From Gemmatimonadota bacterium (lineage in GTDB: Bacteria > Gemmatimonadota > Gemmatimonadetes > Gemmatimonadales > GWC2-71-9): DNA of 64,000 nt. The translations under genes were made by a program, and so were the position numbers. Below the pieces are notes generated by a model that was given only the letters and a program-made list of their open reading frames with translations, was not told where the DNA came from and did not search any database. Of the stretch, positions 4,684-54,299 are shown piece by piece. Every line of letters begins with the position of its first letter. Within the stretch, counting starts at the first letter, position 1. Location: NCBI GenBank assembly GCA_009692185.1, contig SHZT01000009.1, positions 49,335 through 113,334 of the forward strand, in the 5' to 3' direction.

Positions 4684-5499
4684 TTGAAAATCTTTGCCGA
4701 CCAGGCGCTGTCCCGGCGCCTCGAACGAACAGAAGCGACGGCCAACGCGCGGTTCGTCGAGGCACGGGCTTCCCTTTTCCCGAAAAGCGGTGCCACCTGG
4801 ATCGAAGTCGCCGGCGCCTACGCCATGTTCGACGGCGTGGACTCGCCGTGCACCCAGACGTTCGGGCTGGGCGTGTTTCAGGCGCCCACGGTGAGTGACT
4901 TCGAAACCATCGAGCAGTTCTTCCGGGAACTGAAGGCGCCGATGCATCACGAGGTCAGTCCATTGGCTGACCCCGCGACACTTGCCCTGCTCACCCAGCG
5001 GGGGTATCAGCCGATGGAGCTATCCAGCGTGACGTTCTGCCCGATCGAGGAAGCCCTCGCGCTGGCCAATCCGCCGGACACCACGATCAAGACGCGGCTG
5101 ATCCGCAAAGGTGAAGGCCAACTCTGGGCGGAGACGGCGGCGAACGGATGGGCTGACTCGGCGCCGAACGGCGTCCTGACGGACCTGATGCGCGTCACTG
5201 CCGAGCGACCGGAAGCGCTTCCGTTCCTGGCGGAACTGAACGGCGCACCTGTCGCGGCCGGCTCGTTGGCCATTACCGCTGGCGTCGCCTTCCTGGCCGG
5301 GGCGAGCACGATCCCGAGTGCGCGAAGACAAGGCGCCCAGCTGGCGCTATTGAGCGGCCGATTGCGCTACGCGGCGGAACAGGGGTGTGATATCGCGATG
5401 ATGTGCGCGGCCCCCGGGAGTGGTTCCCAGCGCAATGCCGAGCGGAATGGGTTCCGGATCGCCTACACGCGGCTCAAGTGGCAGCTGGCTCCTTGCTAG
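4684..5499 (+). CDS. GNAT family N-acetyltransferase
   Basis: The C-terminal acetyl-CoA motif is ARRQGAQLALLSGRLRYAAEQGCD...RNAERNGFR. Confidence 0.75.
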   Translation: MKIFADQALSRRLERTEATANARFVEARASLFPKSGATWIEVAGAYAMFDGVDSPCTQTFGLGVFQAPTVSDFETIEQFFRELKAPMHHEVSPLADPATLALLTQRGYQPMELSSVTFCPIEEALALANPPDTTIKTRLIRKGEGQLWAETAANGWADSAPNGVLTDLMRVTAERPEALPFLAELNGAPVAAGSLAITAGVAFLAGASTIPSARRQGAQLALLSGRLRYAAEQGCDIAMMCAAPGSGSQRNAERNGFRIAYTRLKWQLAPC

Positions 5500-6670
5500 A
5501 GGGCCCCAGCAACAAGGCCAACGCCAGCACGCCGCCAGCCAGGCCGCTCACGATGAGCGCCGCGGGCCCACCCATCCGCGCATACACCATCCCGAACGTG
5601 ATGCCTCCCAGAAGCCCGGCGATGCCCACGCTTGCGTGGTAGATGCCGAACGTCTTCCCCACGCCCCTGTCTCTCGCCGCGGCGGCCACGAGCGCCCGTT
5701 CCGGTGATTCCGTGAGCGCGGCCACCAGCCCGAACACGAGGAACCAGCCCACGCCGCTCCACGGACTCGTGATCGTGGCCATCGCCATGCACACGAGCCA
5801 GTACGCGAACCACCCGCCGAGCATCACGGACTTCGGGCCCAGGGAATCGGACAGCCGGCCGCCGGGATAACTCAGCGTCGTCCGAATGACATGCAACGCG
5901 GCCCATACGAGAGGGGTGAGGGCCACCGGCAGCCCCAGATCCTTCAGGCGCAGCAGGAACAGCATCTCGGGGAACCGGGCGAAGGCGAACAGGACGATGA
6001 GATAGAGGAGAGAGTTGGGCTGGCGTTTCGCGTTGTTCGGGAAGGGGGAAGCGGGAAGCGGGAAGGGGTTGTCCGCTTCCCCCTTCCCGCTTCCCGCTTC
6101 CCCTCTCACCGCCCAAAACACAGCCAACACCGCAATCAGTCCCGGCACCACGCTCCACACGATCACACGGTCCGGGGAAAGTCCCACCTGGCTCAGCAGG
6201 AGCCACGCCACCAGCGGTCCGACGACCGCGCCCGCGTGGTCCATGGCCCGGTGAAACCCGAACGCACGGCCGCGCATGTCGGGCGTCACGGCATCCGCGA
6301 TCACGGCGTCGCGCGGCGGCGTGCGTAAGCCCTTCCCGACGCGATCTGTCGCGCGGAGCGCGATCACCTGCCACGCGGCCGTGGTCGCGCCGATTACGGG
6401 CCGGGTCACCGCGGCGATGCCGTAGCCGGCGAGGATCAGCGGCCGGCGGAGCCGCGGGCGGTCCGCCAGGAATCCGGACCAGAGCTTGGCGGCGGCGGAC
6501 AGCGCCTCGGAGATCCCGTCGAACAGGCCAAGCGAGAGGGCGCCGCCACCCAGCGACGCCACGAGCGCCGGGATGAGCGGGTAGATCATCTCGCTGGCGA
6601 GATCGTTGAAAAAGGAGACGAGGCCCAGGGATTTGACGACGGGCGGGAGGCCCCGCTCCGATTCACTCAC
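5474..6670 (-). CDS. MFS transporter
   Basis: It has about 12 hydrophobic segments and MFS loop motifs (DRPRLRRPLIL, DRVGKGLRTPPRDA). The central loop carries the repeat-derived insert GEAGSGKGEADNPFPLPASPFP. Confidence 0.85.
   Translation of the reverse strand: MSESERGLPPVVKSLGLVSFFNDLASEMIYPLIPALVASLGGGALSLGLFDGISEALSAAAKLWSGFLADRPRLRRPLILAGYGIAAVTRPVIGATTAAWQVIALRATDRVGKGLRTPPRDAVIADAVTPDMRGRAFGFHRAMDHAGAVVGPLVAWLLLSQVGLSPDRVIVWSVVPGLIAVLAVFWAVRGEAGSGKGEADNPFPLPASPFPNNAKRQPNSLLYLIVLFAFARFPEMLFLLRLKDLGLPVALTPLVWAALHVIRTTLSYPGGRLSDSLGPKSVMLGGWFAYWLVCMAMATITSPWSGVGWFLVFGLVAALTESPERALVAAAARDRGVGKTFGIYHASVGIAGLLGGITFGMVYARMGGPAALIVSGLAGGVLALALLLGPSSKEPAAT
6045..6103. repeat. perfect 24-bp inverted repeat with 11-nt loop, built of GGGAAGC heptamers, inside the MFS CDS
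   Basis: GGGGAAGCGGGAAGCGGGAAGGGG (6045-6068) pairs with CCCCTTCCCGCTTCCCGCTTCCCC (6080-6103). The arms are exact reverse complements (hand-checked). Confidence 0.9.
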
Positions 6671-8285: not shown

Positions 8286-9522
8286 CCGTCTCCAACGTGG
8301 CTTCGTTCACGATCCGGTGACACTCGGCCTCCGCCAGCGTGCGATCGGCCGCCTTGGCTGCCGCGAACAGGCGATCGCACACGACCGCGTCGCCAGCATC
8401 GTAGCCATGCTCTTCCAGCCAGCACTTCACGTTCGAGAGTCCCGAGACCGGGGATATCTTGATGCGCTGCTTCAACCCGAACGCCGTGGCCGGGACGGCC
8501 GAGTAGATCCGGTCCGCCAGCCACGCGTCGCCCTTTTTTCGCGCCTTGATGATCGCCGCGGCGTGGACACCGGTGCCCGTGCGGAACGCGTCGGAGCCGA
8601 GCACCGGGTAGTTGGCCGGTAGCGGCACTCCGATCGTGGCCGCGGCCAGCTCGCAGTACTCGCGGAGGCGCGATACGTCGTGCTGATGAGCACCCAGCAG
8701 GTACAGGTTGACGATGAGCAGGTCCATCTCCGCGTTGCCGACCCGCTCGCCCACGCCCAGGGCCGTGCCGTGGATCCGGTTGGCACCGGCGCGAATCGCC
8801 GCGAGGCAGTTGATGAGCCCCAGGCCGCGGTCACGATGCCCGTGCCAGTCAACCTTTACGTCTTCGCCTGAGGGTTTCACGATCTCCTCGATCACGAACC
8901 GCACCAGGCGGTGCGTGCCTTCCGGCGTCGCGTGGCCGACGGTGTCCGCGAGGCAAAGGCGCCGGGCGCCCCAGCGAATGGCGTTGCCGTAGAGCGCCGT
9001 GAGCGTCTCCGGCCGGGCGCGGGTCGAGTCCTCGGCCACGAACATCACCGGGAGGCCTTCGCGCACCGCGAACGTCACGGCCTCTTCGCTGACCCTGAGC
9101 ATCCGCTCCAGCGTCCAGTCCTCGGTGTACTGGCGAATGGGCGATGAGCCGATGAACGTCGCCGCCTCGATGGGGATGCCGACATCGTGGGAAATCTGCG
9201 CGATCGGCTCGACGTCGCTGAGCACCGTGCGCGCGGCGCAGTTCGGCGAAATGGGGATCTTCTCCCGAACGATCTCCTTGGCCAGCGCGCGGACCGAATC
9301 CACCACACGGGGGCCGGCACCCGGCAGGCCGATATCCGCCGAGGCGATCCCCAGGTCGGCCATCAGGTGCAGGAGTTTGAGCTTGACGTCGAGCGGGGGG
9401 TCGATCGCGGAAGGAGACTGGAGGCCGTCGCGCAGGGTCTCGTCATTCAAGTCAATGCGGACGGACTTCCAGTCGAAGCCGGCGTCCGAATTCCAGTCGT
9501 AGATCAGCTGGGATTCGTCCAT
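8260..9522 (-). CDS. isopropylmalate/homocitrate/citramalate synthase family protein (HMGL-like, short form)
   Basis: Motifs are LNDETLRDGLQSP and HGHRDRGLGLINCLAAIRAGANRIHGTALGVGERVGNAEMD. The start is chosen at MDESQLIY (9522) rather than the ORF start 9693. The canonical leuA lies elsewhere (46893..48554). Confidence 0.7.
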   Translation of the reverse strand: MDESQLIYDWNSDAGFDWKSVRIDLNDETLRDGLQSPSAIDPPLDVKLKLLHLMADLGIASADIGLPGAGPRVVDSVRALAKEIVREKIPISPNCAARTVLSDVEPIAQISHDVGIPIEAATFIGSSPIRQYTEDWTLERMLRVSEEAVTFAVREGLPVMFVAEDSTRARPETLTALYGNAIRWGARRLCLADTVGHATPEGTHRLVRFVIEEIVKPSGEDVKVDWHGHRDRGLGLINCLAAIRAGANRIHGTALGVGERVGNAEMDLLIVNLYLLGAHQHDVSRLREYCELAAATIGVPLPANYPVLGSDAFRTGTGVHAAAIIKARKKGDAWLADRIYSAVPATAFGLKQRIKISPVSGLSNVKCWLEEHGYDAGDAVVCDRLFAAAKAADRTLAEAECHRIVNEATLETGAGVGGRH

Positions 9523-9597
9523 TGGCGAAGTCTGCGGCCCGCCCACGGGGGCGTCAAGCTTGCCGGGTGCGCCCGTCGCCCGCCAATTTCCTTCCCC

Positions 9598-10791
9598 ATG
9601 ACCGACACCATTTCCGCTTTGTCCCGCCACCCGGCGCTCACCCGCGGTCACGAACGCCTGATTCGCACAGACGCCCGCACCGTCGCGTGGCAAACGGCGA
9701 TCTGCGAGACGCCCGCGCCAACTGGCCGGGAACAGGCCCGGGGCGCCAAGGTCTCCGGGTTACTGCGCGAGATCGGCTTGACGTCGGTGTCCACTGACGA
9801 CGTCGGCAACGTGATCGCGTGGTGGGGTCCCGCGGACCGGGCCCCGGTGGTCATCGCCGCGCACCTCGACACCGTATTCGGCCCCGGGGTAGATGTGTCA
9901 GTTCGAAAGGACGGCGACCGGCTTATCGGGCCCGGCATTACAGACAATGCGCGCGGCCTGGCCGGCATGCTCGCCCTGGCCGATGTCGTGGCGTCGGGCC
10001 AATGGGCGACCGCGAAGCCCATCGCTTTCGTCGCCACGGTCGGCGAGGAAGGCGCGGGCGACCTGCGTGGCGTGCGGCATCTCTTTGGCGAACGGAAGCT
10101 CGCGGCGGATTCGGTCATCGTGCTGGACGGCGCCGGCGACGACCGCGTGGTCCATGGCGGCCTGGGGTGCCGCCGCTATCGGTTCATGTTCCGTGGCCCC
10201 GGCGGCCACTCGTGGTCCGCATTCGGCGCGCCGAACCCGGCCCACGCGGCGAGTACGCTCACGCAGGCCGTGGCCGAACTGCCCGGCAGGGAAACGCCGC
10301 GTACGACCTGCTCCGTCGTGGGAATCGGCGGCGGAACCAGCCTCAACTCAATACCCGATGAGGCATGGGTCGAAATTGACCTTCGGAGCGAGGGCACCGC
10401 GCCGCTTGAGGAGATCGAACGCGTGCTCCACGCCGCGGCCCGGCTCGGAATGGATCGTGAAAATGCCCGAAAAACGCTGGGGAGCCGAGCGCTCGACCTG
10501 ACCGTGGCGGTCATCGGAGATCGGCCCTCCGGCGTGACACCGGCCGACCACCCGCTGGTGCAGGCTGGTCTGGATGCCACGCGCGCAGTCGGCCGGCGGC
10601 CGGCGCTCGCGACTGCCTCCACGGACGCCAACATTCCGATTTCCCTGGGAATTCCGGCGATCGCGTTGGGGGCCGGCGGCAAAGCCGGAGACACGCACAG
10701 CGCAACGGAGTGGTTTGAGAATGCCGATGGACCGGCGGGAATATTTCGGGCGTTGCTGGTGCTGGCCGCGGCTGCCGGGCTCAACAAATGA
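9598..10791 (+). CDS. M20/M25/M40 family metallopeptidase
   Basis: The sequence shows ..VVIAAHLDTVF..., GITDNARG and GEEGAGDLRG metal-ligand context. The start is chosen at MTDTISAL (9598). Confidence 0.8.
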   Translation: MTDTISALSRHPALTRGHERLIRTDARTVAWQTAICETPAPTGREQARGAKVSGLLREIGLTSVSTDDVGNVIAWWGPADRAPVVIAAHLDTVFGPGVDVSVRKDGDRLIGPGITDNARGLAGMLALADVVASGQWATAKPIAFVATVGEEGAGDLRGVRHLFGERKLAADSVIVLDGAGDDRVVHGGLGCRRYRFMFRGPGGHSWSAFGAPNPAHAASTLTQAVAELPGRETPRTTCSVVGIGGGTSLNSIPDEAWVEIDLRSEGTAPLEEIERVLHAAARLGMDRENARKTLGSRALDLTVAVIGDRPSGVTPADHPLVQAGLDATRAVGRRPALATASTDANIPISLGIPAIALGAGGKAGDTHSATEWFENADGPAGIFRALLVLAAAAGLNK

Positions 10792-10814
10792 GAAGTAAGA
10801 AGTGAGAAGTAAGA
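10789..10814. repeat. left 26-bp terminal inverted repeat of the four-helix-bundle cassette
   Basis: TGAGAAGTAAGAAGTGAGAAGTAAGA. Its first three bases are the stop codon of the M20 peptidase gene. Confidence 0.9.
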
Positions 10815-10819
10815 CGGAG

Positions 10820-11176
10820 TTACTCGCGTCGAACCTTCTTCAGCAAACCCATCACCAACGCCTGACTCTCCCGTGCCGTGGCAACGGCCTTCGCCACCAC
10901 GTCACCCGGCACGAGTTGGGACTCCTCGAGGAGCTCCAAGAGGTCAGATGTTTCCACCGCGGAACCGTAGGCAATCACGAGATGGTTTCTGAAGCGACGC
11001 GATGAGCGTACGGCGTAGCCTTCGGCAATGTTCAATTGCACGGACAGGGCGGCACGCTGAAGCTGGTTGAACACCGCCGACGCCGACGGCTGCCAATGCT
11101 TGCGGCAGAGTTCCAGCACCTGCAGAACCACCGCGTGCGCCCGCTGCCACGCCAAGAGCGTCTTGTGGGTCTGCAT
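10820..11176 (-). CDS. four-helix-bundle protein (23S rRNA intervening-sequence protein / Avd-like family)
   Basis: The translation is MQTHKTLLAWQRAHAVVLQVLELCRK...QLQRAALSVQLNIAEGYAVRSSRRFRNHLVIAYGSAVETSDLLELL. The NIAEGY..R and A.GS..E signatures are typical of this family. Confidence 0.85.
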   Translation of the reverse strand: MQTHKTLLAWQRAHAVVLQVLELCRKHWQPSASAVFNQLQRAALSVQLNIAEGYAVRSSRRFRNHLVIAYGSAVETSDLLELLEESQLVPGDVVAKAVATARESQALVMGLLKKVRRE

Positions 11177-11250
11177 TTCACGAGAGTAATCACCGAGCCG
11201 TGGCAGGAGAGGAGCGAACAAACGCGGGGTGGAGCGAAAAAGCGCGACTT

Positions 11251-11276
11251 TCTTACCTCTCACTTCTTACTTCTTA
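11251..11276. repeat. right 26-bp terminal inverted repeat of the four-helix-bundle cassette
   Basis: TCTTACCTCTCACTTCTTACTTCTTA. Its reverse complement matches the left repeat at 24 of 26 positions. Its last three bases are the stop codon (TAA on the minus strand) of the nucleotidyltransferase gene. Confidence 0.9.
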
Positions 11277-12257
11277 GGGCGCCTTCGCTACCTCGCCCCT
11301 GGTCACGATCATCCGCTTGAGTTTCTGACCAATCACCTCCGAACCTGGTCCCACCAGGCACTCCTCCAGCGTGGAGCCGACGATCTTCGCACCTTCGCCT
11401 ATGATCGTGTCCCGGAGCACGCTGGTCATGACGACCGACCCCGGCTCGATGGACACGTTGGGCCCCAATGTGCAATCCTCCAGTTCGACGCCATCCGCCA
11501 CAAACACAGGGTCGAGTATGCGAACCTGCGCGCGGGGGCTCGGACGCTTCGCACTACCATGGCTCAACAGGTGCAGGTTGGTCTCCAGCACGGTCTCGAT
11601 CTTGCCGCAGTCATACCAGCCGGCGACCGGCGCCGCGAGGATCTTCCGACCGTGATCCACCATGTGCTGGAAGGCCTCGGTGAGGTAGAACTCGCCCTTC
11701 ATGGGCGGCTGTGACCTGGTCCAGGCAATCCCGTCGAACAGCGCCTTCCAATCCTTCATGTAGTAGAGGCCGATGTTGGCGAGCTTGGAAATGGGCTCTT
11801 TCGGCTTCTCGACAATCTTCGTCATGTACCCGTGCGCGTCCGTCACCACCACGCCGAAGCGCTGGTAGTCCTCCACTTCCTTGGCCCAGATGATGCCGTC
11901 GGCCTCGGTGCGCTGGATGAGGGAAAGATCGGCGTCGAAGAGGGTGTCTACGAAAATGATGAGGACGGGCCCGCTGACGTACGAGCGGGCGAGGTCAATC
12001 GCGCTCGCGGTGCCGTCCTGCACCCTCTGCTCGATGAACCGTGCCGGCTGGCGGTAATGCGTCCGGACGTACGCCTCGACCTGCTCCTTCAAGTGCCCGG
12101 TAATAAAAATCAGCTCTTCGACGTCGAGCTGATTCACCTGATCCATGACGTAGTCCATCACCGGGCGCCCGGCGACGCGAATCAGCGGCTTGGGAATCTC
12201 TTTGGTGAGCGGGAGCAGGCGGGTGCCTTTCCCCGCCAGCGGAATAATGACCTTCAC
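11274..12257 (-). CDS. sugar-phosphate nucleotidyltransferase (NTP-transferase domain plus hexapeptide-like C-terminus)
   Basis: N-terminus is MKVIIPLAGKGTRLLPLTKEIPKPLIRVAGRPVMDY. Confidence 0.8.
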   Translation of the reverse strand: MKVIIPLAGKGTRLLPLTKEIPKPLIRVAGRPVMDYVMDQVNQLDVEELIFITGHLKEQVEAYVRTHYRQPARFIEQRVQDGTASAIDLARSYVSGPVLIIFVDTLFDADLSLIQRTEADGIIWAKEVEDYQRFGVVVTDAHGYMTKIVEKPKEPISKLANIGLYYMKDWKALFDGIAWTRSQPPMKGEFYLTEAFQHMVDHGRKILAAPVAGWYDCGKIETVLETNLHLLSHGSAKRPSPRAQVRILDPVFVADGVELEDCTLGPNVSIEPGSVVMTSVLRDTIIGEGAKIVGSTLEECLVGPGSEVIGQKLKRMIVTRGEVAKAP

Positions 12258-15565: not shown

Positions 15566-16821
15566 ATGCGTGTTCCACACTGGTTTCTCCTCGCCGCCCT
15601 CGCCGCGGCCCCGGGCTCATCTGTTTCGGCCCAGCAGGGCGCTCTCACGGACACCTCGATCGCGGCCCGGCTGGAAAAAGCCGAACGCATGATCGAACTG
15701 CTGCGCCAGCAGGTAGCCGAACAGGCGAAGGGACGGGTTGAACCCCGGTCGGGCAACAAGGTCGAGCTGTCGGGAGTGGTCCTGATCAACGGGTTCTTCA
15801 ACAACGCCAAGGTGAACAGCGCCGACAACCCGACGTTCGTACAGGCGCCGGACCCGCCGGGATTCCTGCCGAACTCGAACCTGGGAGGCACCGCCCGCCA
15901 ATCAGAGTTCGGGCTCACGGCCATCGCTCCCAAGGTGATCGGGGCGACATTCACTGGAGAGCTGGACATGGACTTCTACGGCGGCCAGCAGAACTTTGGC
16001 CGCCTGTTTCCCCTGCTCCACCTGAAACGCACCCGTGGGGAGCTCCGCTGGCCGCATGCCTGGCTCGCCTTTGGCGAGGATGCGCCGCCGATCTCGGAGG
16101 TCAACCCGTCTTCCTTCTCGGCTCGCAGCATTCCAGGGTTTACCAACGCGGGGAACCTGTGGTTCTGGATTCCCCAAGTCCGTCTGGGCGCGGACGTGGG
16201 AACCACCGTCAGCGTCGGGCTCGAGGCGACGGCGATGGCGCCGATCTCCACCGAGACGCCGGCCACTTTCAACCCCGCGCCGAGCGCAGCCGCCGGCCGT
16301 CGGCCGAGGGCCGGCTGCTGGTCAAGTGGGACCAGCCCCAGTCCACCGGCGAGATTTCCGTGGGCGGGCACTACGGCTGGATCGCGACGACCGCGCTCGA
16401 CACGTTCATCGTGTCCCGGGCGGTCGCGGCGAGCATCCGCTTCAGCGTCACCGGATTGTTCGAGGTCCGTGGCGAAGCGTTCGCCGGCCAGGCCCTGGCC
16501 GGCCTTGGCGGCGGCGGGATCGGGCAGAACCTCAACGCCGCGGACGCGCCCGTGCGCACCCGGGGCGGCTGGGCCCAACTCAACATCAAGCCAACGCCCG
16601 AATTCGAATTCGGCGGGGGCTACGGATTCGACGATCCGACCGACAGCGACCTGGACCTGGCTACCGGGCGGCTCAGGAACGTGACGATGGAGGGGCACCT
16701 CCACTATACGCCCGGTCCGGTCGTGTTCGCGGTGGAGTTCCGCCGGGTCGAAACGACGTATTCGACGCTCGGGACACTCTTCGTCCATCACTTCAATGTG
16801 GGGATGGGGTTTCGGTTCTAG
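15566..16821 (+). CDS. outer-membrane porin-like beta-barrel with N-terminal coiled coil; apparent frameshift near 16295
   Basis: It has the signal peptide MRVPHWFLLAALAAAPGSSVSAQQ and the coiled coil IAARLEKAERMIELLRQQVAEQ. Alternating beta-strand sequence follows and ends in the terminal ...FNVGMGFRF. The first part is in the frame of 15491..16684 and the second in the frame of 16159..16821. Confidence 0.65.
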
Positions 16822-16823
16822 GG

Positions 16824-16899
16824 TAAGAAGTGAGAGGTGAGAAGTAAGAAGGAGAGCCGCCACCTTCTTGCTTCTCACTTCTTACGTCTTACTTCTCAC
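16824..16899. repeat. cargo-less hairpin of the same GAGAAGT/AAGAAGT repeat family (about 28-bp stem, 11-nt loop)
   Basis: TAAGAAGTGAGAGGTGAGAAGTAAGAAGG-AGAGCCGCCAC-CTTCTTGCTTCTCACTTCTTACGTCTTACTTCTCAC. Hand pairing gives 24 Watson-Crick pairs, 3 G-U pairs and 1 mismatch. It lies between the porin stop and the TPM gene start. Confidence 0.85.
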
Positions 16900-16915
16900 T
16901 ATCTTTCCCGGCGCG

Positions 16916-17716
16916 ATGATCTTCCCCGTACTCGCTCTCGCCATCCAAATCCAGCTCACAGCGCCGTCGGGCTACGTCAACGACTTCGCCGGCGTGCTCG
17001 AAGGCACGTCGCGCGCCGCGATAGTCGCGCTGATCGACGAGGTGCGGCAGAAGTCGGGCGGTGAAATCGTCGTGGTGACCCTCCGGGACCTGGGTGGCCG
17101 CGCTTCGATTGACGTCGCGCGGGACATCGGCCGGCAGTGGAAGGTCGGGGCGATGGGCGGCCCCGGAGACCGCGCCCGGAACGCCGGCGTCGTCCTCCTG
17201 TTCAAGCCCGGCGGGCGACCGGGAGACGGGCAGGCGGACATTGCCATCGCTACCGGCACCGGCACCGAAGGGTTCGTCACCGACGCGCTGGCCGGGCGAA
17301 TACGCGATGCCATCGGCCGGCAATCGGTCGAAGCAGGCAGCTACGCCGAGGGGTTGCCCGTGGGCGTCGCCATGCTCGCCCGGGCCTATGCCACCGAGTT
17401 CGGGTTCGAGTTGACCGGCGCGGCGGCCGAGCAGATTCCGGAAGGTGGTGGAAGAATCACCATCCCCGGTCCGTTCGCCGTTCTGATCGCGCTTTTCGTG
17501 TTCATCATGTTCGTGTCGATTGTCCGGCAACTCGCGCACCAGCGGGGCGGCTCGTTCCTCGGCACGCTTTTCTGGATCGCCATGAGTCAGCAGGGGCGTC
17601 GCGGCGGCTGGGGTGGCGGGCGTGGCTGGGGTGGCGGCGGAGGCGGGGGTGGAGGCTTCGGTGGTTTCGGTGGCGGCGGCGGCTTCGGTGGCGGCGGCGC
17701 ATCGGGGAGGTTCTGA
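16916..17716 (+). CDS. TPM (TLP18.3/Psb32/MOLO-1, YgcG-like) domain protein with Gly-rich tail
   Basis: Contains SGYVNDFAGVLEGTSRAAIVALIDEVRQKSGGEIVVVTL, then a TM segment, then GGWGGGRGWGGGGGGGGGFGGFGGGGGFGGGG. The start at 16916 lies just beyond the hairpin repeat. Confidence 0.8.
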   Translation: MIFPVLALAIQIQLTAPSGYVNDFAGVLEGTSRAAIVALIDEVRQKSGGEIVVVTLRDLGGRASIDVARDIGRQWKVGAMGGPGDRARNAGVVLLFKPGGRPGDGQADIAIATGTGTEGFVTDALAGRIRDAIGRQSVEAGSYAEGLPVGVAMLARAYATEFGFELTGAAAEQIPEGGGRITIPGPFAVLIALFVFIMFVSIVRQLAHQRGGSFLGTLFWIAMSQQGRRGGWGGGRGWGGGGGGGGGFGGFGGGGGFGGGGASGRF

Positions 17717-25720: not shown

Positions 25721-26299
25721 ATGAAGAGTGCCGTGGTTCTCCTTGCCGCCGCTTCGCTGGTCGGGTCGGGCACGCTGTCGGCCCAGCAACCGGCCGCCGC
25801 CCCGCCGGCGCCGCCACCGCTCGAGATCGGCGCCGTGGCGCCGGACTTCGCCATGCCGGGCGCCACCCGCTACGGCGTTCTGCGGGACCCGATCAAGCTC
25901 AGCGACTTCAAAGGGAAGACGGTCGTGCTGGCCTTCTTCTTCCGCGCCCGAACGCGTGGCTGAACCATCCAAATGCACGCGTACCGTGATCAGTACGCGC
26001 AGATCTTCAGAGGCGGACAGAACGTCGTCCTCATCGGCATCAGCGTAGACAGTGCCGGGGCGCTGGCTTCATGGGCCAGGGATGACCAGTTCCAGTTCCT
26101 GATGGGATCCGACACCGACCAGGCGGTCGGCAAGGCTTACGGCGCTATTCGCGGTGGCTCCGACAACCGGAACCTCTTCGTGGTGGGACCGGACGGGAAA
26201 ATTGCCTGGCGGGCGACGCCGTTCCGCGAGATAGACCCGCTGGCGTACACCGAGCTGGCAGCGGCGCTCGACAAGATCTCACCGCCCGAGCAGAACTAG
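25721..26299 (+). CDS. exported peroxiredoxin (AhpC/TSA-Bcp/AhpE-like) with TGA at the peroxidatic Cys position (candidate selenocysteine)
   Basis: ORFs 25721..25963 and 25973..26299 share one frame. Joined, they read ...FKGKTVVLAFFFRARTRG[TGA]TIQMHAYRDQYAQIF...VVLIGISVDS...DNRNLFVVGPDGKI. The signal peptide is MKSAVVLLAAASLVGSGTLSAQ. Confidence 0.7.
25978..25999 (+). promoter_or_regulatory. candidate bacterial SECIS-like hairpin
   Basis: CGCGTAC (25978-25984) pairs perfectly with GTACGCG (25993-25999). The loop is CGTGATCA. The stem starts 15 nt after the TGA at 25961-25963. Confidence 0.45.
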
Positions 26300-26394
26300 A
26301 CGGATAGGCGGATAGACAGGTAGAAAAAGGGCGGAGACCGATCTTGGTCCCCGCCCTTTCGTTATCTGTCCATCCGTCTATCCGCCTATCCGTC
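26299..26394. repeat. long inverted repeat built of GGATAGG/CGGATAG units, between convergent genes
   Basis: GACGGATAGGCGGATAGAC at 26299-26317 is the exact reverse complement of 26376-26394. The inner parts pair imperfectly. The right arm encodes the last residues and the stop of TlpA. Confidence 0.9.
26324..26359. terminator. bidirectional intrinsic terminator
   Basis: AAAAAGGGCGGAGACC-GATCTT-GGTCCCCGCCCTTT forms an 11-bp stem with one mismatch. It is flanked by an A-run and a T-run and sits between convergent genes. Confidence 0.7.
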
Positions 26395-26956
26395 CCCCCG
26401 CCTTCTGGACCGCCAGCTCCACGGTCTGTTTGTCCCCCAACCCGGTGTACCTCACCTTGCCCTTGGCGTCCAGCGCGGCGATGTAGGAGGTCGAAGGCGC
26501 CTGGAACGCGCGCGTCGCCGCTCCGGACACGTCAAAGAACACCCGCCCGGGCATCGCATGCTCCGTTGCGTGACGCTTGACCGAGTTGCGGCTCTGCCCC
26601 ACGCCTACCGCGACGATCAGGATCTCAACGTTGTCTCCGTACTTGGCCTTCGCGGCCTCGAACTGGGGCATGAGGGCCTTGCACAGCGCGCACCACGTGG
26701 CCCAGAACTCCACGAGCACGGGTTTCTTTCCAATGAAGGTCGCGAGGTCCACCGCGTTGCCGTCCAGATCCTGCACCGCGATGGGCGACGTCGTGACGAT
26801 CGACGAGCCGACCGCTATGCCGATTGTCTCCTGCGCCAGCGCGGGTGACGCGATGGTGGATAGGGCGATGGTGGATAGGGCGATGGTGAATGAGGCGACG
26901 GTGGGGAAAAGCGATGGCCTCAACACCCGTCCCTCGTCTCGCGTCACTCGTCTCAT
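26378..26956 (-). CDS. TlpA/ResA-type periplasmic thiol:disulfide oxidoreductase
   Basis: The thioredoxin fold has VLVEFWATWCALCKALMP. The start is chosen at MRRVTRDE (26956). The signal region contains the repeat FTIALSTIALSTIA. Confidence 0.8.
   Translation of the reverse strand: MRRVTRDEGRVLRPSLFPTVASFTIALSTIALSTIASPALAQETIGIAVGSSIVTTSPIAVQDLDGNAVDLATFIGKKPVLVEFWATWCALCKALMPQFEAAKAKYGDNVEILIVAVGVGQSRNSVKRHATEHAMPGRVFFDVSGAATRAFQAPSTSYIAALDAKGKVRYTGLGDKQTVELAVQKAGGRIGG
26850..26906. repeat. 15-bp tandem repeat (GCGATGGTGGATAGG x2 plus two degenerate copies) inside the TlpA signal-peptide region
   Basis: 26850-26864 equals 26865-26879. Positions 26880-26894 and 26895-26906 are diverged copies. 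The repeat encodes a STIAL pentapeptide periodicity. Confidence 0.85.
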
Positions 26957-46893: not shown

Positions 46894-48554
46894 TACGGTG
46901 CGGCGGCCGGCGCGGGGACCCCGGGAGCCCCGGGCTCACGCCCGGGGTTAGCTGGACTCACCCCGGGGCTGGCTGACCCCGGGCGTAAGCCCGGGGCTTG
47001 CGAGGATCCCGCAGCCGCGTCCCGCGCGGCCAGCAGGTGGTTCAGCGCCGATACGTACGCCTCCGCCGACGCGGTCACAATGTCTGCCTGAACCCCGTGC
47101 CCCAGGTACACCACCCCGGTATGGAAATCGCGCACCCGCACGGTCACCCGTCCCACGGCATCGATACCCTCGGTCACCGCGTGCACCTGGAACTCGCACA
47201 GTTGTCCCAGCTCACCCAGCACGCCGTTGACCGCGCGGCACACGGCATCCACCGGCCCATCCCCCGTTCCCGAGGCCGTGGCCAGCGACCCGTCGGGGCA
47301 ACGCATGCGCACCGTTGCCGTCGGGATTGTATGTGTGCCGCACGTGACCTGGGCCTGGTCCAGTTCATAGCGGCCGGAAGACCCCTCCGGCGCGCCGCCC
47401 GCGAGCGCGCGAAGGTCGCGGTCGTCGAGCACCTTCTTCCGGTCGGCGAGCGCCTTGAACCGGTCGAACACCGCGCGAAACGGCTCGTCGTCCAATTCGA
47501 TACCAAGCTCACACAGCCGTTTCCGGAGCGCGGCGCGGCCGGAGTGCTTGCCCAGGACCAGCAGGCTCCCGTCTCCCCCCACTGATTCCGCCGTCATGAT
47601 TTCGTAGGTCGCGCGGTGCTTGATCACCCCATCCTGGTGAATCCCGGCCTCGTGGGCAAAAGCGTTGGAGCCGACCACGGCCTTGTTGGGCGGCACGTAC
47701 ACGCCCGTGCACGCCGACACGAGGCGGGACGTCCGGGCGATTTCCTGCGTCGCGATACCCGTGTCCACGCTGAAGTAGTCCGGCCGCGTGGCAATCGCCA
47801 TGACGACTTCCTCGAGTGAGGCGTTGCCGGCGCGCTCCCCGATCCCATTCACGGTACACTCCACCTGGCGGGCACCCGCCCGCACACCGGCCAGTGAATT
47901 AGCGACGGCCATGCCAAGGTCGTCGTGGCAATGGGTGGACACCACCACGCCGGGGTGCTTCGATGCCTGCGCCACCACGCGCTCGATGAGGAAACCGTAC
48001 TCGGCGGGAGTCAGGTAGCCCACCGTGTCCGGAATGTTGAGCGTCGTCGCGCCGGCCTCGATTACCGCCGCCAAGACCTCCGACACAAACCCCCAATCGC
48101 TGCGGCCGGCATCCTCCGGCGAGAACTCCACGTCATCAACGAACGTGCGAGCCAGCGTCACGGCGTCCGCCGCACGCCGGAGCACTTCTTCCCGGGTCAG
48201 GCGCAGCTTGTGCTTGAGGTGAATATCGGAAGTGGCAATGAACGTGTGGATGCGCCGCCGGCTGGCATCGCGGATGGCGGCCGCGCAGGTCGCGATGTCT
48301 CTCTCGGCCGTACGGGCGAGGCCGCACACGATGGGCCCGCGAGCGGAACCCACCCGCTGGGCGACGGCGCTGACCGCGTCCACCTCCCCGGCCGACGCCG
48401 CCGGAAACCCAGCCTCGATCACATCTACGCCCAGCCGCGCCAACTGCTCAGCCACTTTCAGCTTTTCCGGCAGGGTCATGGTGCAGCCCGGGGCTTGCTC
48501 CCCGTCCCGCAGGCTCGTGTCGAAAATCCGGACTCGGCCCCGCACTTCGCTCAT
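46893..48554 (-). CDS. leuA: 2-isopropylmalate synthase with repeat-encoded C-terminal extension
   Basis: Contains [35 protein letters not shown] and a LeuA dimerisation/regulatory domain. The last 40 or so residues (..[38 protein letters not shown]) are read through palindromic repeats. Confidence 0.9.
46919..46996. repeat. cluster of CCCCGGGC-NNNN-GCCCGGGG palindromic hairpins (REP-like)
   Basis: The hairpins are at 46928-46947 (loop TCAC) and 46977-46996 (loop GTAA), with a CCCCGGGG palindrome at 46961-46968. The 46977-46996 copy is the exact reverse complement of 28582-28601. Confidence 0.85.
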
Positions 48555-51707: not shown

Positions 51708-52240
51708 TTGTGGTCCGTGGGAGCGCCGGCCAGCAACTGAACGGCGTGCTCGATGAGCGGCTCGAGGACGGTCAGCCCTTCCTTCACGCCTGACGGACTT
51801 CCGGGGAGGTTGACGATGAGCGCCTGGGCCCGCGTTCCCGCCAGCCCGCGGGACAACGCGCTGCGCGGCGTGTTCGCCTGCCCCGCCGCCCGAATGGCCT
51901 CGGCAATGCCGGGGGCCTCGCGCTCGATCACCGCCCGGGTGGCTTCGGGCGTGACGTCCCTGGGAGACAATCCGGTACCGCCAGTGGTCAGGATCACCTG
52001 CGCCACGTCGTCATCCGCCCAGCGGGAAATAACGGAGGCGATGCGGTCGGTTTCATCCGGCACGACTTCGCGGGCGGATACCTCGTAGCCGCGGGCGGCC
52101 ACCCAGTCGGCGATGGCCTTGCCGGACGTGTCCTCTCGCTTCCCCTGGAAGCCGAGGTCGGAAATGGTGAGCACAGCTACTCGAACCGGAGGGCGTCGCA
52201 CGGCCGCCGTACTTTTCCCTTTTCCCTTTTCCCTTTTCAC
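51704..52240 (-). CDS. mog: molybdopterin adenylyltransferase / MoaB-Mog family
   Basis: Contains [27 protein letters not shown] and NLPGSPSGV. The called GTG start (52240) reads [10 protein letters not shown] from the heptamer repeat. The real start may be an internal GTG (..AVRRPP). Confidence 0.8.
52212..52239. repeat. (CTTTTCC)n heptamer tract, which reads (GGGAAAA)n on the coding strand, at the gcvT/mog junction
   Basis: There are three exact heptamers and one partial copy. Confidence 0.9.
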
Positions 52241-53352
52241 GCCTTTGAAGCTTTCGCTTTCCTCGCACTTCCCTGCCGGTAGAACGGCATCCGTACCACC
52301 TCGGCTTCGATCCGCTTCCCGCGCGAGTCCACCTGGAAGCGCGTGCCTGGCTCAACCGAATGCGTGGGAAGGAACGTGGTGCCGATGCCTTCCTTGAGCG
52401 AGGGGCTGAATCCGCCGCTCCGGACGACGTCGATCTTGGTATCCCGCAGGTACACGTCGTACCCGTGGCGCGGAATCGCGCCCCGGTCGATCATCCGGAA
52501 CCCCACGAGCTTCCGCGTGACGCCCTTTTCCTTGATCGCGCGCAGGGCCTCCTGGCCCACGAACGGCTCGGCCTTGTTGAGCTTCACGATCCAGCCGAGC
52601 CCGGCCTCGTACGGGTTGATCGTGTCGTCGATGTCATTGCCGTAGAGCGCGTACCCCATTTCCAGCCGCAACGAATCCCGGGCACCCAGGCCGATCGGTG
52701 TCGCCCCGCCGGCTTCCACCAACGCCTTCCACATCACCCCCGCGTCGCGGTTCCGGAAATACAGTTCGAATCCGTCTTCCCCGGTGTAGCCCGTGCGGGA
52801 GACGAAGCACTGCACGCCGGCGATATCGCCGACCTTGAAGTGGTAGTACCCGATGTCATGCAGCGGGACCTGGGTGAGCGAACGCAGCAGCGTCTCCGCC
52901 TTGGGGCCCTGCACGGCGAGGAGTGACACCTCGTCCGAAATATTCCGGAGGCGTACGTCTCCCGACCGCCGTGAAGAGATGTGGGCCCAGTCCTTCTCGA
53001 TATTCGACGCGTTGACGACCATCATCAGCTTGTCGCCGAACTGGTAGACGATGCAGTCGTCCACCACGGTTCCCTGGTCGTTCAGAATGGCCGAGTACTG
53101 CGCCTGCCCGATATCGAGTGTCGAAACGTCGTTCGAGGTCATCCGGTTTACGAAGTCATTCCGCTCGCGGCCGGTCACTTCGAACTCGCCCATGTGGGAC
53201 ACGTCGAACACGCCGACCCCCGTGCGCACGGCCTCGTGCTCCTTTGTAATGCCGGTTGGGTACTGTACCGGCATCTCGTACCCGGCGAACGGGACGATCT
53301 TGCCCCCGGCCGCCACATGGAAGTCGTAGAAGGGCGTGCGTTTGAGTGTCAT
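52237..53352 (-). CDS. gcvT: glycine cleavage system aminomethyltransferase T
   Basis: Contains MTLKRTPFYDFHVAAGGKIVPFAGYEMPVQY and FDVSHMGEF. The start is chosen at 53352 (ATGA overlap with the argF stop). Confidence 0.95.
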   Translation of the reverse strand: MTLKRTPFYDFHVAAGGKIVPFAGYEMPVQYPTGITKEHEAVRTGVGVFDVSHMGEFEVTGRERNDFVNRMTSNDVSTLDIGQAQYSAILNDQGTVVDDCIVYQFGDKLMMVVNASNIEKDWAHISSRRSGDVRLRNISDEVSLLAVQGPKAETLLRSLTQVPLHDIGYYHFKVGDIAGVQCFVSRTGYTGEDGFELYFRNRDAGVMWKALVEAGGATPIGLGARDSLRLEMGYALYGNDIDDTINPYEAGLGWIVKLNKAEPFVGQEALRAIKEKGVTRKLVGFRMIDRGAIPRHGYDVYLRDTKIDVVRSGGFSPSLKEGIGTTFLPTHSVEPGTRFQVDSRGKRIEAEVVRMPFYRQGSARKAKASKA

Positions 53353-54299
53353 CGTGTTTTGCTTTTCCCTTTTCCCTTTTCCCTTTTCCCGCTTCTCGAT
53401 CCGCCCATCAACGTCGCCATCAACGCTTTCTGCACGTGAAGCCTGTTCTCCGCCTGGTCCCACACCCGGGAATGCGAACCTTCCATTACCTCGTCGGTGA
53501 CTTCCTCCCCACGGTGTGCGGGCAGGCAGTGAAGAAAAATGGCGTTCTTTGCGGCGAGCCCCATGAGATTGTCGTCCACCATGTATCCGTGAAACGCCAG
53601 CCGCCGTGCTTCGGCTTCCGCTTCCTGGCCCATCGAAGCCCAGACATCCGTGTTGATCACGTGCGCTCCCCTGGCTGCCTCTTCGGGCTCCTCGGTCACG
53701 GATACGTCGGCTCGAGACTTGGCCCACTCGAAAATCTCCCGGTTGGGCTCATAGCCCTCCGGGCAGGCGATGCGCAGGGTAAACCCCAGCTGGCCGGCCG
53801 CCTGCAACCACGTGTTGGCCATGTTGTTCCCGTCGCCGATCCACGCCACGACCTTGCCCTTCCAGCCGCCCAGGCATTCGCGCACCGTCAGGAGATCCGC
53901 GAGCACCTGGCAGGGGTGCAAGAGGTCCGTGAGTCCGTTGATGACCGGTACGGCCGCGTGACGGGCTAGGTCCTCGACCTCGTCGTGCGCATACGTCCGG
54001 ATGACGATCCCGTTCAGGTAGCGTGAGAGCACCCGCGCGGTGTCACGGATCGGCTCTCCCCGGCCCAGCTGGAGGTCACGAGACGAGAGGAACATGGGGT
54101 GCCCGCCGAGCTGATAGGTGCCCACCTCGAACGACACCCGGGTCCGCGTGCTGCTCTTGGCGAACAGCATCCCCACGGCCTTGCCGGCCAGTGGCCTGGC
54201 CAGGTACTTCCCCGCCTTCATCGCGGCCGCCATGTCCAGCACGGCCCCGATTTCCTTCGGGGAAAAGTCCGTCAGTGCGAGAAAGTCCCGTTTAGGCAT
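53349..54299 (-). CDS. argF: ornithine carbamoyltransferase
   Basis: Contains STRTRVSFE, HPCQVLAD, DVWASMGQE and HCLPAHRGEEV. The start is chosen at MPKRDF (54299). Confidence 0.9.
   Translation of the reverse strand: MPKRDFLALTDFSPKEIGAVLDMAAAMKAGKYLARPLAGKAVGMLFAKSSTRTRVSFEVGTYQLGGHPMFLSSRDLQLGRGEPIRDTARVLSRYLNGIVIRTYAHDEVEDLARHAAVPVINGLTDLLHPCQVLADLLTVRECLGGWKGKVVAWIGDGNNMANTWLQAAGQLGFTLRIACPEGYEPNREIFEWAKSRADVSVTEEPEEAARGAHVINTDVWASMGQEAEAEARRLAFHGYMVDDNLMGLAAKNAIFLHCLPAHRGEEVTDEVMEGSHSRVWDQAENRLHVQKALMATLMGGSRSGKREKGKGKSKTR
53354..53397. repeat. (CTTTTCC)4 heptamer tract, which reads (GGGAAAA)4 on the coding strand, at the argF/gcvT junction
   Basis: Four exact heptamers span 53362-53389, flanked by degenerate copies. 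They are translated as the argF tail [14 protein letters not shown]. Confidence 0.9.

Follow-up and report, generated by a model that had tools for sequence, protein, structure and literature searches.

A 77-nt palindrome at positions 16823–16899 of a 64-kb stretch of Gemmatimonadota DNA (GenBank assembly GCA_009692185.1, contig SHZT01000009.1, positions 49,335–113,334; hereafter the window) is supported as a cargo-less, or solo, member of a repeat family whose arms are built from tandem heptamers of the type GTRAGNN. The other form of the family is a cassette in which inverted heptamer arrays enclose a gene for a four-helix-bundle protein, and one such cassette lies 5.5 kb from the solo hairpin. 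The junction occupied by the solo, between an outer-membrane-like gene and a TPM-domain gene, has carried a repeat-armed hairpin since before the sampled relatives diverged; the sequence of its present arms is young and matches the nearby cassette. The most likely role of the hairpin, going by sequence and position, is that of a 3′-end RNA structure of the upstream gene, acting in termination or stabilisation and possibly cut by RNase III. We regard the explanation as a whole, a solo family member with young arms on an old site that forms the 3′-end RNA hairpin of the upstream gene, as slightly better than an even bet.

Structure of the solo hairpin and its kinship with the cassette

The hairpin is real and very stable. 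The sequence first reported at 16824–16899 is present at these positions. TAAGAAG opens with its T at 16824, and reading the array in GTRAGAA phase moves its start to 16823. Folded as plus-strand RNA, 16815–16910 reached −47.2 kcal/mol against −23.5 ± 3.0 kcal/mol in 200 dinucleotide-preserving shuffles (z = −7.9), none of which folded equally well. The 16824–16899 segment folded alone formed 29 pairs (26 Watson–Crick, 3 G-U) around a single internal mismatch and left an extra 3′ unit unpaired. This is close to the stem of about 28 bp (24 Watson–Crick pairs, 3 G-U, 1 mismatch) counted by hand in the original prediction. Four GTRAGAA heptamers make up the left side of the stem and the complement of five the right side, whose last unit is the one unpaired in the best register. 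The minimum free energy (MFE) structure also places one A-C-flanked pair inside the loop AGAGCCGCCAC. Because the arms are repeats, register shifts of 7 nt keep the stem paired, at 26/30 and 22/23 positions. The left arm on the plus strand and the right arm on the minus strand both read GTRAGAA, 8 of the 9 hairpin units fit G-T-R-A-G-[CAG]-[GA], and each left-arm heptamer contains a TGA or TAA.

The heptamer array begins 1–2 nt past the TAG of the upstream gene, in line with the predicted start just past this stop codon, and ends 16 nt ahead of the TPM ATG. The hairpin is not an assembly artefact: the contig around it is 416 kb long, and counterparts are present in assemblies made independently (JGI, ENA, NCBI and Logan).

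Copies of the repeat in the source genome were counted within the 64-kb window. There, GTGAGAAGTAAGAAG gave 14 matches with at most 3 mismatches against 0.39 expected, and 13 of the 14 fell in the hairpin or in the cassette arrays at 10788–10816 (+) and 11249–11277 (−). The solo and the window cassette have two 15-mers in identical form, GTGAGAAGTAAGACG and GTAAGAAGTGAGAGG, both of which include variant units; together with the match count, these bear out the claim that hairpin and cassette arms share their heptamers. Period-7 arrays were the sole over-represented short-period arrays in the window, with four at the stringent setting against none in shuffles; the GTRAGAA arrays are additional to these four. 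The cassette arms are inverted, 436 nt apart, and pair into a 24-bp closing stem when the entire cassette is folded (MFE). Both arms overlap the ends of the neighbouring genes: an M20 peptidase gene (9187–10791) stops at the first TGA of the left arm, and a convergent NTP-transferase gene (11274–12257, minus strand) at the outermost TAA of the right arm. The two families matched by the enclosed gene are named "23S rRNA-intervening sequence protein" in Pfam (PF05635) and "four helix bundle protein" in NCBIfam (TIGR02436).

At other loci, too, solos tend to carry the unit type of a nearby cassette. Among solos within 3 kb of a cassette, 10 of 15 had the cassette's unit type; without three that belong to the cassette's own downstream arm, the count was 7 of 12 against 2.3 expected (P = 0.0005). 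The solo and cassette of the window agree with this trend. With its units fitting the consensus, the two common 15-mers and the unit sharing of nearby solos, the predicted status of the palindrome as a cargo-less member of the same repeat family was upheld.

Distribution of solos and cassettes

Further copies of the repeat, for which the original prediction had proposed a search, were sought in a genome collection. An exact-pattern scan for (TRAGAAG)3, with one genome per species, returned at least 120 loci against about 2 expected by chance, the expectation being an estimate. The matches listed come from many phyla, and 24 of the 120 lie in Gemmatimonadota metagenome-assembled genomes; in at least 15 of these 24 listed loci, the arrays stand in close convergent pairs and thus form hairpins, with 12–180 nt between the arms. 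These genomes also contain the variants GTGAGGA, GTGAGCA, GTGAGAC and GTGACAG, in some cases nested, and several Gemmatimonadales solos enclose a GC-rich inner stem-loop. Using a hidden Markov model of 120 homologs together with an nhmmer cassette profile, we found the four-helix-bundle gene in only 3 of the 120 (TRAGAAG)n loci listed (L018, L084 and L103), so the solo is the common form among these loci and not a rare derivative. The same result ruled out (TRAGAAG)n as a general marker of four-helix-bundle cassettes across phyla. Longer-spaced inverted array pairs in two loci of other phyla (L020 and L025) bracket ordinary membrane-protein genes. Outside Gemmatimonadota and Acidobacteriota (L016, L022, L050, L073, L122 and others), many (TRAGAAG)n matches were long one-sided arrays of 15–23 units, found in Bacteroidota, Shewanella and others.

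The cassette form was collected from metagenomes with an alignment of 40 four-helix-bundle homologs, yielding 80 loci, 76 of them with enough flanking sequence. Comparison of the 200 nt upstream of the gene with the 200 nt downstream revealed a significant inverted repeat in 69 of the 76, and the flanking arms were almost always tandem heptamers. Over 143 cassette arms, the unit reads G(142) T(141) R(142) A(143) G(126) [C/A/G] [G/A]. Units vary between cassettes (GCG, GAG, GAA, GGA, GAC, GCA, AAA, CAG, ACG and GAT at positions 5–7), and those of the two arms lie within one mismatch of each other in 63 of 65 cassettes. Complementarity between the arms averages about 90% over 39 bp. All cassettes have one polarity, the 5′ arm reading GTRAGNN on either strand. 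Because every unit contains a TGA or TAA and the period is 7 nt, stops in all three frames face translation from either side.

The interior lengths of inverted pairs are bimodal, 9–181 nt for solos and 423–586 nt for pairs that enclose the four-helix-bundle gene; the focal hairpin has an interior of 11 nt and the window cassette one of 436 nt. Two cassettes at non-syntenic loci shared a unit type with a frequency of 0.04 where their proteins were less than 50% identical and of 1.0 at identities of at least 80%, the latter bin comprising 7 pairs from few groups, few of them independent. This rise with protein identity indicates that gene and arms travel together.

None of 20 long-flank cassettes lay in rRNA, and 4 of the 20 follow a tRNA cluster. 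Four loci (L144, L154, L156 and L158) represent one cassette lineage downstream of a three-tRNA-gene cluster; the upstream arm starts 24–43 nt past the last tRNA in L156 and L158, and the cluster lies about 1.75 kb from the cassette in L144 and about 2.1 kb in L154. Among 52 non-redundant cassettes (loci L126–L205), 25 (7.4 expected) have a −10-like TAnnnT that ends 5–6 nt ahead of the start codon. No Shine–Dalgarno sequence was evident upstream of the start codons of these 52; the upstream regions suggest that the cassette gene has its own internal promoter and a leaderless mRNA. A semi-conserved leader, ATTCGG ... GATTTGATGAC, stands farther upstream in cassettes.

A more distant four-helix-bundle gene (L084, 2268–2785) is flanked by inverted CGCGGAA heptamer arrays with no stop-codon core, so not all cassettes use GTRAG units. 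CGCGGAA resembles GGGAACG, the unit at the L212 junction described below, and GGGAAGC, the unit of a hairpin at 6038 of the window. The plasmid collection was uninformative: its only two S23-protein genes, both from Calothrix, are tightly packed and lack arrays. Contigs bearing close homologs of the four-helix-bundle gene were mostly only 0.5–1.5 kb long; flanking arrays probably break short-read metagenome assemblies, as contigs of this length would fit.

Table 1 Features of the solo hairpin, the neighbouring cassette and the flanking genes in the window.
Feature	Coordinates	Strand	Evidence
Cassette left arm, TGAGAAG TAAGAAG TGAGAAG TAAGACG	10788–10816	+	Pattern matches
Four-helix-bundle gene, 118 aa, cassette cargo	10820–11176	−	Pfam PF05635, E = 1e-19; NCBIfam TIGR02436, E = 3e-21
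Cassette leader segment; related cassettes have −10-like TAnnnT ending 5–6 nt before start codon	11177–11248	−	Sequence
Cassette right arm (minus strand TAAGAAG TAAGAAG TGAGAGG TAAGAAA)	11249–11277	−	Pattern matches
TAG stop of upstream outer-membrane-like gene	16819–16821	+	tblastn with intact L005 ortholog
Solo hairpin palindrome, 77 nt	16823–16899	+	Sequence, fold
Left arm, GTAAGAA GTGAGAG GTGAGAA GTAAGAA GG, four GTRAGNN units	16823–16852	+	Sequence, Tandem Repeats Finder (TRF) period 7, pattern matches, fold
Loop AGAGCCGCCAC, 11 nt	16853–16863	+	Sequence, fold
Right arm, complement of five heptamers (CTTCTTG CTTCTCA CTTCTTA CGTCTTA CTTCTCA C)	16864–16899	+	Sequence, pattern, TRF, fold
TATCTTTC box, directly 3′ of hairpin, 8 nt ahead of TPM ATG	16900–16907	+	Eight aligned orthologous upstream regions
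TPM-domain gene, 3′ of hairpin	16916–17716	+	Pfam PF04536, E = 8e-21; exact protein on 416-kb ENA contig

The junction in relatives and the probable role of the hairpin

In the four closest syntenic relatives sampled (TPM proteins 61–66% identical), a repeat-armed hairpin stands between a conserved TTC TAG and a conserved TATCTTTCCC, the orthologous metagenome contigs compared not being independent samples. The repeat unit differs from the GTRAGAA of the window in all four. The L005 and L206 hairpins (z = −6.4 and −8.5) are built from GCGGATRA octamers, equivalent to TRAGCGG with a base added, the L211 hairpin (z = −3.2) from GGCGGCAGRM, a unit of about 10 nt, and the L212 hairpin from GGGAACG heptamers. 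Because close relatives carry junction hairpins with different units, both site and structure predate the arm sequence now found in the window. None of the relatives compared has a four-helix-bundle gene at the junction, and the comparison of this junction among relatives, originally put forward as a check, speaks against a recent excision footprint. The 116–117-aa minus-strand genes that separate TPM from the outer-membrane-like gene in L207 and L208 were ruled out as cassettes: the former is Ion_trans_2-like, the latter belongs to no family, and both are without repeats. An old site with young arms can reflect either a retained structural function with fast unit turnover or a strongly preferred insertion site.

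Downstream of the hairpin, the box aligned with TATCTTTC lies 8–10 nt before the TPM ATG and is kept in 8/8 orthologous regions, whether a hairpin is present or not. It is conserved also where the gene upstream of TPM lies on the other strand (L003, L004, L207 and L208); in L003, L004 and L208 it reads TACGATAC in the promoter-like arrangement TTGAAA-N19-TACGAT. In the four loci where TPM follows an opposite-strand gene, TPM must for that reason have its own promoter, and the conserved box makes this very probable for the TPM gene of the window as well, with TATCTTTC as a candidate −10/−7 element. The right arm of the hairpin occupies the site where the −35/−33 element would be. Homologs of TPM are labelled Gemmatimonadales, the best only about 66% identical. 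The original prediction had suggested that the hairpin could be an intra-operon terminator or processing site. Termination or processing is still plausible; the two flanking genes are indeed co-directional and 94 nt apart, but an operon is doubtful because TPM keeps the conserved promoter-like TATCTTTC box right behind the hairpin, and does so behind opposite-strand genes too.

The upstream gene is split over two frames, with an N-terminal part from about 15566 and a C-terminal part at 16276–16821. Aligned by tblastn with the intact 424-aa L005 ortholog (residues 32–253 in frame 2, 244–424 in frame 1), it switches frame near 16276–16312, owing either to a sequencing error or to its being a pseudogene. 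It has no Pfam or NCBIfam match and is frameshifted in the assembly, which leaves its earlier label as a porin unverified.

In the explanation that we favour, the hairpin would be transcribed as the 3′ end of this outer-membrane-like gene, and the transcript would fold into an RNA stem of about 29 bp followed by UAUCUUUC. The stem would end the upstream transcript, protect it from 3′ exonucleases, or both, and would insulate it from the TPM gene, itself started at the promoter-like box behind the hairpin. The TGA or TAA in each 7-nt unit would supply three-frame stops on the incoming strand of each arm, and this would let elements of the family lie on or beside stop codons harmlessly. The arms would be rewritten by unit slippage together with copying between arms and between elements of one genome, or by repeated re-insertion at the site. 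The gene ends that adjoin solos comprise 26 3′ ends against 6 5′ ends, the latter at 10–198 nt, a statistic that is weakened by the crude, heuristic, GC3-based gene calls behind it. Nearly all of the 26 lie −18 to +11 nt from the array, with two or three farther away, up to 229 nt, and the solo array often provides the stop codon of the adjoining gene.

Several further points weigh against a 3′-end RNA structure. We infer the RNA role from sequence, and a simple consensus terminator scan did not call the hairpin, its loop exceeding 8 nt and its tail having only 5 T of 8. The terminator model calls for a GC-rich stem of 5–20 bp, a loop of 3–8 nt and a T run; here, the stem is much longer, the loop measures 11 nt, and TATCTTTC, the T-rich tail behind the hairpin, has 5 T of 8. 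As minus-strand RNA, the focal hairpin reaches −39.7 kcal/mol and the plus strand is more stable because the three wobble pairs are G-U on that strand, a difference that is weak evidence as it rests on only three G-U pairs. Strand-specific RNA selection on the cassette stems was rejected, the arm mismatches including 77 G-U against 63 A-C (p = 0.27); given this lack of strand bias, arm pairing may be kept by DNA-level copying and not by selection on one RNA strand. Selection on structure could keep the arms paired, as could simple arm-to-arm copying. At the junction itself, the right arm of the L212 hairpin is decayed (z = −0.6). The more distant L001 has 100 nt of ordinary spacer with no such hairpin (z = +0.3), and L207, likewise more distant, has a convergent small membrane-protein gene in place of the hairpin.

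The main alternative, which we nevertheless consider fairly unlikely, makes the hairpin an RNase III processing site in a polycistronic transcript, where a cut would separate the upstream and TPM messages and set differing stabilities. The stem exceeds two helical turns, the co-directional genes are only 94 nt apart, and TPM may depend on read-through here, given that the hairpin fills the place of its −35/−33 element. The architecture is also common to stems of intervening sequences (IVSs) cut by RNase III, in Coxiella at the first heptameric repeat (PMC4990558). RNase III substrates, however, cannot be predicted from sequence, and the TATCTTTC-aligned box is conserved in the four loci where TPM cannot be co-transcribed with an opposite-strand neighbour.

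Alternatively, the palindrome could be home-grown: an ordinary terminator hairpin turned repetitive in place by 7-nt slippage and templated arm correction, its likeness to the cassette due to convergence or occasional gene conversion. Such an origin would suit a junction hairpin that is found clade-wide with units of 7, 8 and about 10 nt, register shifts that keep the stem paired and arm mismatches without strand bias; heptameric repeats are, moreover, the commonest long simple-sequence repeats in bacteria, and convergent pairs occur in Xanthomonas (PMC4692102). What makes it unlikely in our view is the GTRAG core, nearly invariant over the 143 cassette arms and the unlinked solos of many genomes, which in-place drift does not predict, along with the variant 15-mers common to the solo and its neighbouring cassette and the significant unit sharing between neighbours.

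The least probable account takes up a suggestion of the original prediction, that of an excision footprint or copy resembling a miniature inverted-repeat transposable element, and makes the hairpin a neutral remnant of a mobile cassette that was once present here or transposed here, with its interior lost, its ends joined and no function of its own; the unit type and 15-mers shared with the cassette 5.5 kb away, the two discrete size classes with one case only in between, the behaviour of open reading frame (ORF) and arms as one heritable unit and the match of solos to nearby cassettes would all agree with it, but the junction hairpins are older than the present arms, and the four close relatives have hairpins of unrelated units and no four-helix-bundle gene there. 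Searching with nhmmer for the leader and ORF, we found no cassette-interior remnant in any of the 120 listed loci beyond the three with the gene, and the solo interiors look mutually unrelated by eye. No target-site duplication was visible in the flanks of the solo (TTCTAGG ... TATCTTT) or of the cassette (CAACAAA ... GGGCGCC). Solos also far outnumber cassettes, with the gene at only those three of the listed loci, and we consider the remnant account very unlikely.

Relation to known elements and other repeats in the window

Intervening sequences in 23S rRNA and their S23p, or four-helix-bundle, genes have been known for over 30 years; to our knowledge, their origin, mobility and function remain unexplained. 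The cassette form shares the classical architecture of these IVSs, but lies between protein genes. The 23S rRNA IVS of Coxiella burnetii is 428 nt long, carries an S23p ORF, is closed by a 28-bp inverted-repeat stem and is excised by RNase III (PMC4990558). Its 5′ arm contains tandem GACAGAT heptamers whose copy number varies between strains (PMC4990558). The window cassette likewise consists of a PF05635/S23p gene between inverted repeats, with a closing stem of 24 bp against 28 bp in Coxiella, and GACAGAT read in another phase is TGACAGA, comparable to TGACAGG in L171 and L182. Terminal inverted repeats that close a long stem are also a feature of the solo, with 29 pairs, which parallels the ORF-less IVS hairpins of Salmonella, Yersinia and Campylobacter. 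The differences concern location and content: IVSs are defined by their place in helix 9, 25 or 45 of 23S rRNA, whereas the solo is flanked by protein genes and the elements described here adjoin protein genes at the 3′ end or follow tRNA clusters. An S23p/PF05635 ORF occurs within the window only in the neighbouring cassette, the solo having an 11-nt loop and no ORF. Rfam gave no family match, rRNA included, anywhere in the 64-kb window. In a literature search of incomplete coverage, we found no report linking non-rRNA four-helix-bundle genes with heptamer arms and solo hairpins; a search on PF05635, TIGR02436 or S23p with repeats, or on palindromic repeats of Gemmatimonadetes, returned only the Coxiella IVS paper.

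From the hairpin, we were led to hundreds of elements of the same architecture, with long inverted heptamer arms and with or without the gene, outside rRNA at ordinary gene ends. If the link with IVSs holds, those in rRNA would be just the small, visible part of a far larger family, whose spread can be tested through arm covariation, turnover of units at orthologous sites and co-inheritance of gene and arms; a large unannotated class of 3′-end structures in Gemmatimonadota and other soil phyla would also gain a name. Speculatively, and with a rather low probability in our estimate, GTRAGNN arrays and the four-helix-bundle protein could be one system. The protein, a relative of Avd, the nucleic-acid-binding protein of diversity-generating retroelements, would recognise its own arrays and help to copy or maintain them. 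In such a system, cassettes would represent the autonomous and solos the non-autonomous form of a new class of mobile palindrome, one that settles at gene ends, in tRNA clusters and now and then in helices of 23S rRNA. The system, if real, would explain where ribosomal IVSs come from.

The REP/BIME and REPIN-RAYT elements are dispersed extragenic palindromes at gene ends that stabilise the upstream mRNA, and in REPIN-RAYT one protein gene is flanked by inverted copies of repeats found elsewhere as cargo-less hairpins. The enclosed gene here encodes a small four-helix bundle (PF05635), in contrast to the Y1 transposase there, and the arms are tandem arrays of variable unit number, unlike the fixed REP sequence. 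Correia/NEMIS and ERIC-type elements are short inverted repeats co-transcribed with their neighbours, whose RNA hairpins are cut by RNase III or alter mRNA stability. Their copies are near-identical, with a conserved interior and target-site duplications, whereas the elements described here have just the arm repeat type in common, and no duplication was seen. With intrinsic terminators, the focal hairpin shares a stable stem right after the stop codon and then the T-rich TATCTTTC, and a related palindrome at 26297–26394 encloses a canonical terminator hairpin; the focal stem differs in being far longer, A/G-rich and repetitive, with an 11-nt loop and a weak T tract.

Heptamer repeats have been reported in two further settings. 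In Xanthomonas, convergent inverted pairs of GGGAATC heptamers are mostly intergenic and can form stem-loops (Rehm et al. 2015, PMC4692102); related genomes have them in the same places but with differing length and sequence (PMC4692102). The focal hairpin is similarly a pair of convergent tandem 7-nt arrays, intergenic, conserved in position and variable in length and sequence among relatives. The Xanthomonas unit, however, is G-rich and quadruplex-forming, compared with GTRAGAA, which has a GTRAG core with a stop codon and no G tracts, and no link with a four-helix-bundle gene is reported there (PMC4692102). Direct repeats of the heptamer TAACTGA, known from Beggiatoaceae, cyanobacteria and Bacteroidetes, place stops in all three frames (PMC4679880). 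These repeats lie between genes, in many cases across the stop codon of the preceding gene, and are patchily distributed across phyla (PMC4679880). These and the cyanobacterial STRR repeats resemble the focal hairpin in their stop-containing 7-nt units but form direct arrays upstream of start codons and are almost never inverted (PMC4679880).

The window contains other repeats of related kinds. A near-perfect GGGAAGC heptamer hairpin (−65 kcal/mol, z = −8.5) lies at 6038–6103, within an MFS_1 transporter gene (5474–6670, minus strand). It is in frame, 66 nt or 22 codons long, encodes part of the central cytoplasmic loop GEAGSGKGEADNPFPLPASPFP and recalls the Rickettsia palindromic elements. 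As proof of an insertion, this hairpin fails, since 11 homologs have a hypervariable central loop that is about as long. The palindrome at 26297–26394 consists of octamers (TAGRCGGA units) and stands between convergent AhpC-like (25973–26299, plus strand) and Redoxin (26378–26956, minus strand) genes. Its arms contain the stop codons of both of these thioredoxin-fold genes, and its interior is a textbook bidirectional terminator of A tract, GC stem-loop and T tract. Two perfect (CTTTTCC)4 arrays in direct orientation, at 52212–52238 and 53362–53390, bracket gcvT (52237–53352, minus strand; Pfam GCV_T), one touching the stop codon and the other ending 10 nt ahead of the ATG. Their unit, GAAAAGG, differs by a single base from the arm type GTGAAAA and has no stop codon. 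Finally, a GC-rich inverted repeat at 46912–47012, with 41-nt arms that are 83% complementary and 19 nt apart, is not composed of heptamers and lies at the junction of two minus-strand genes.

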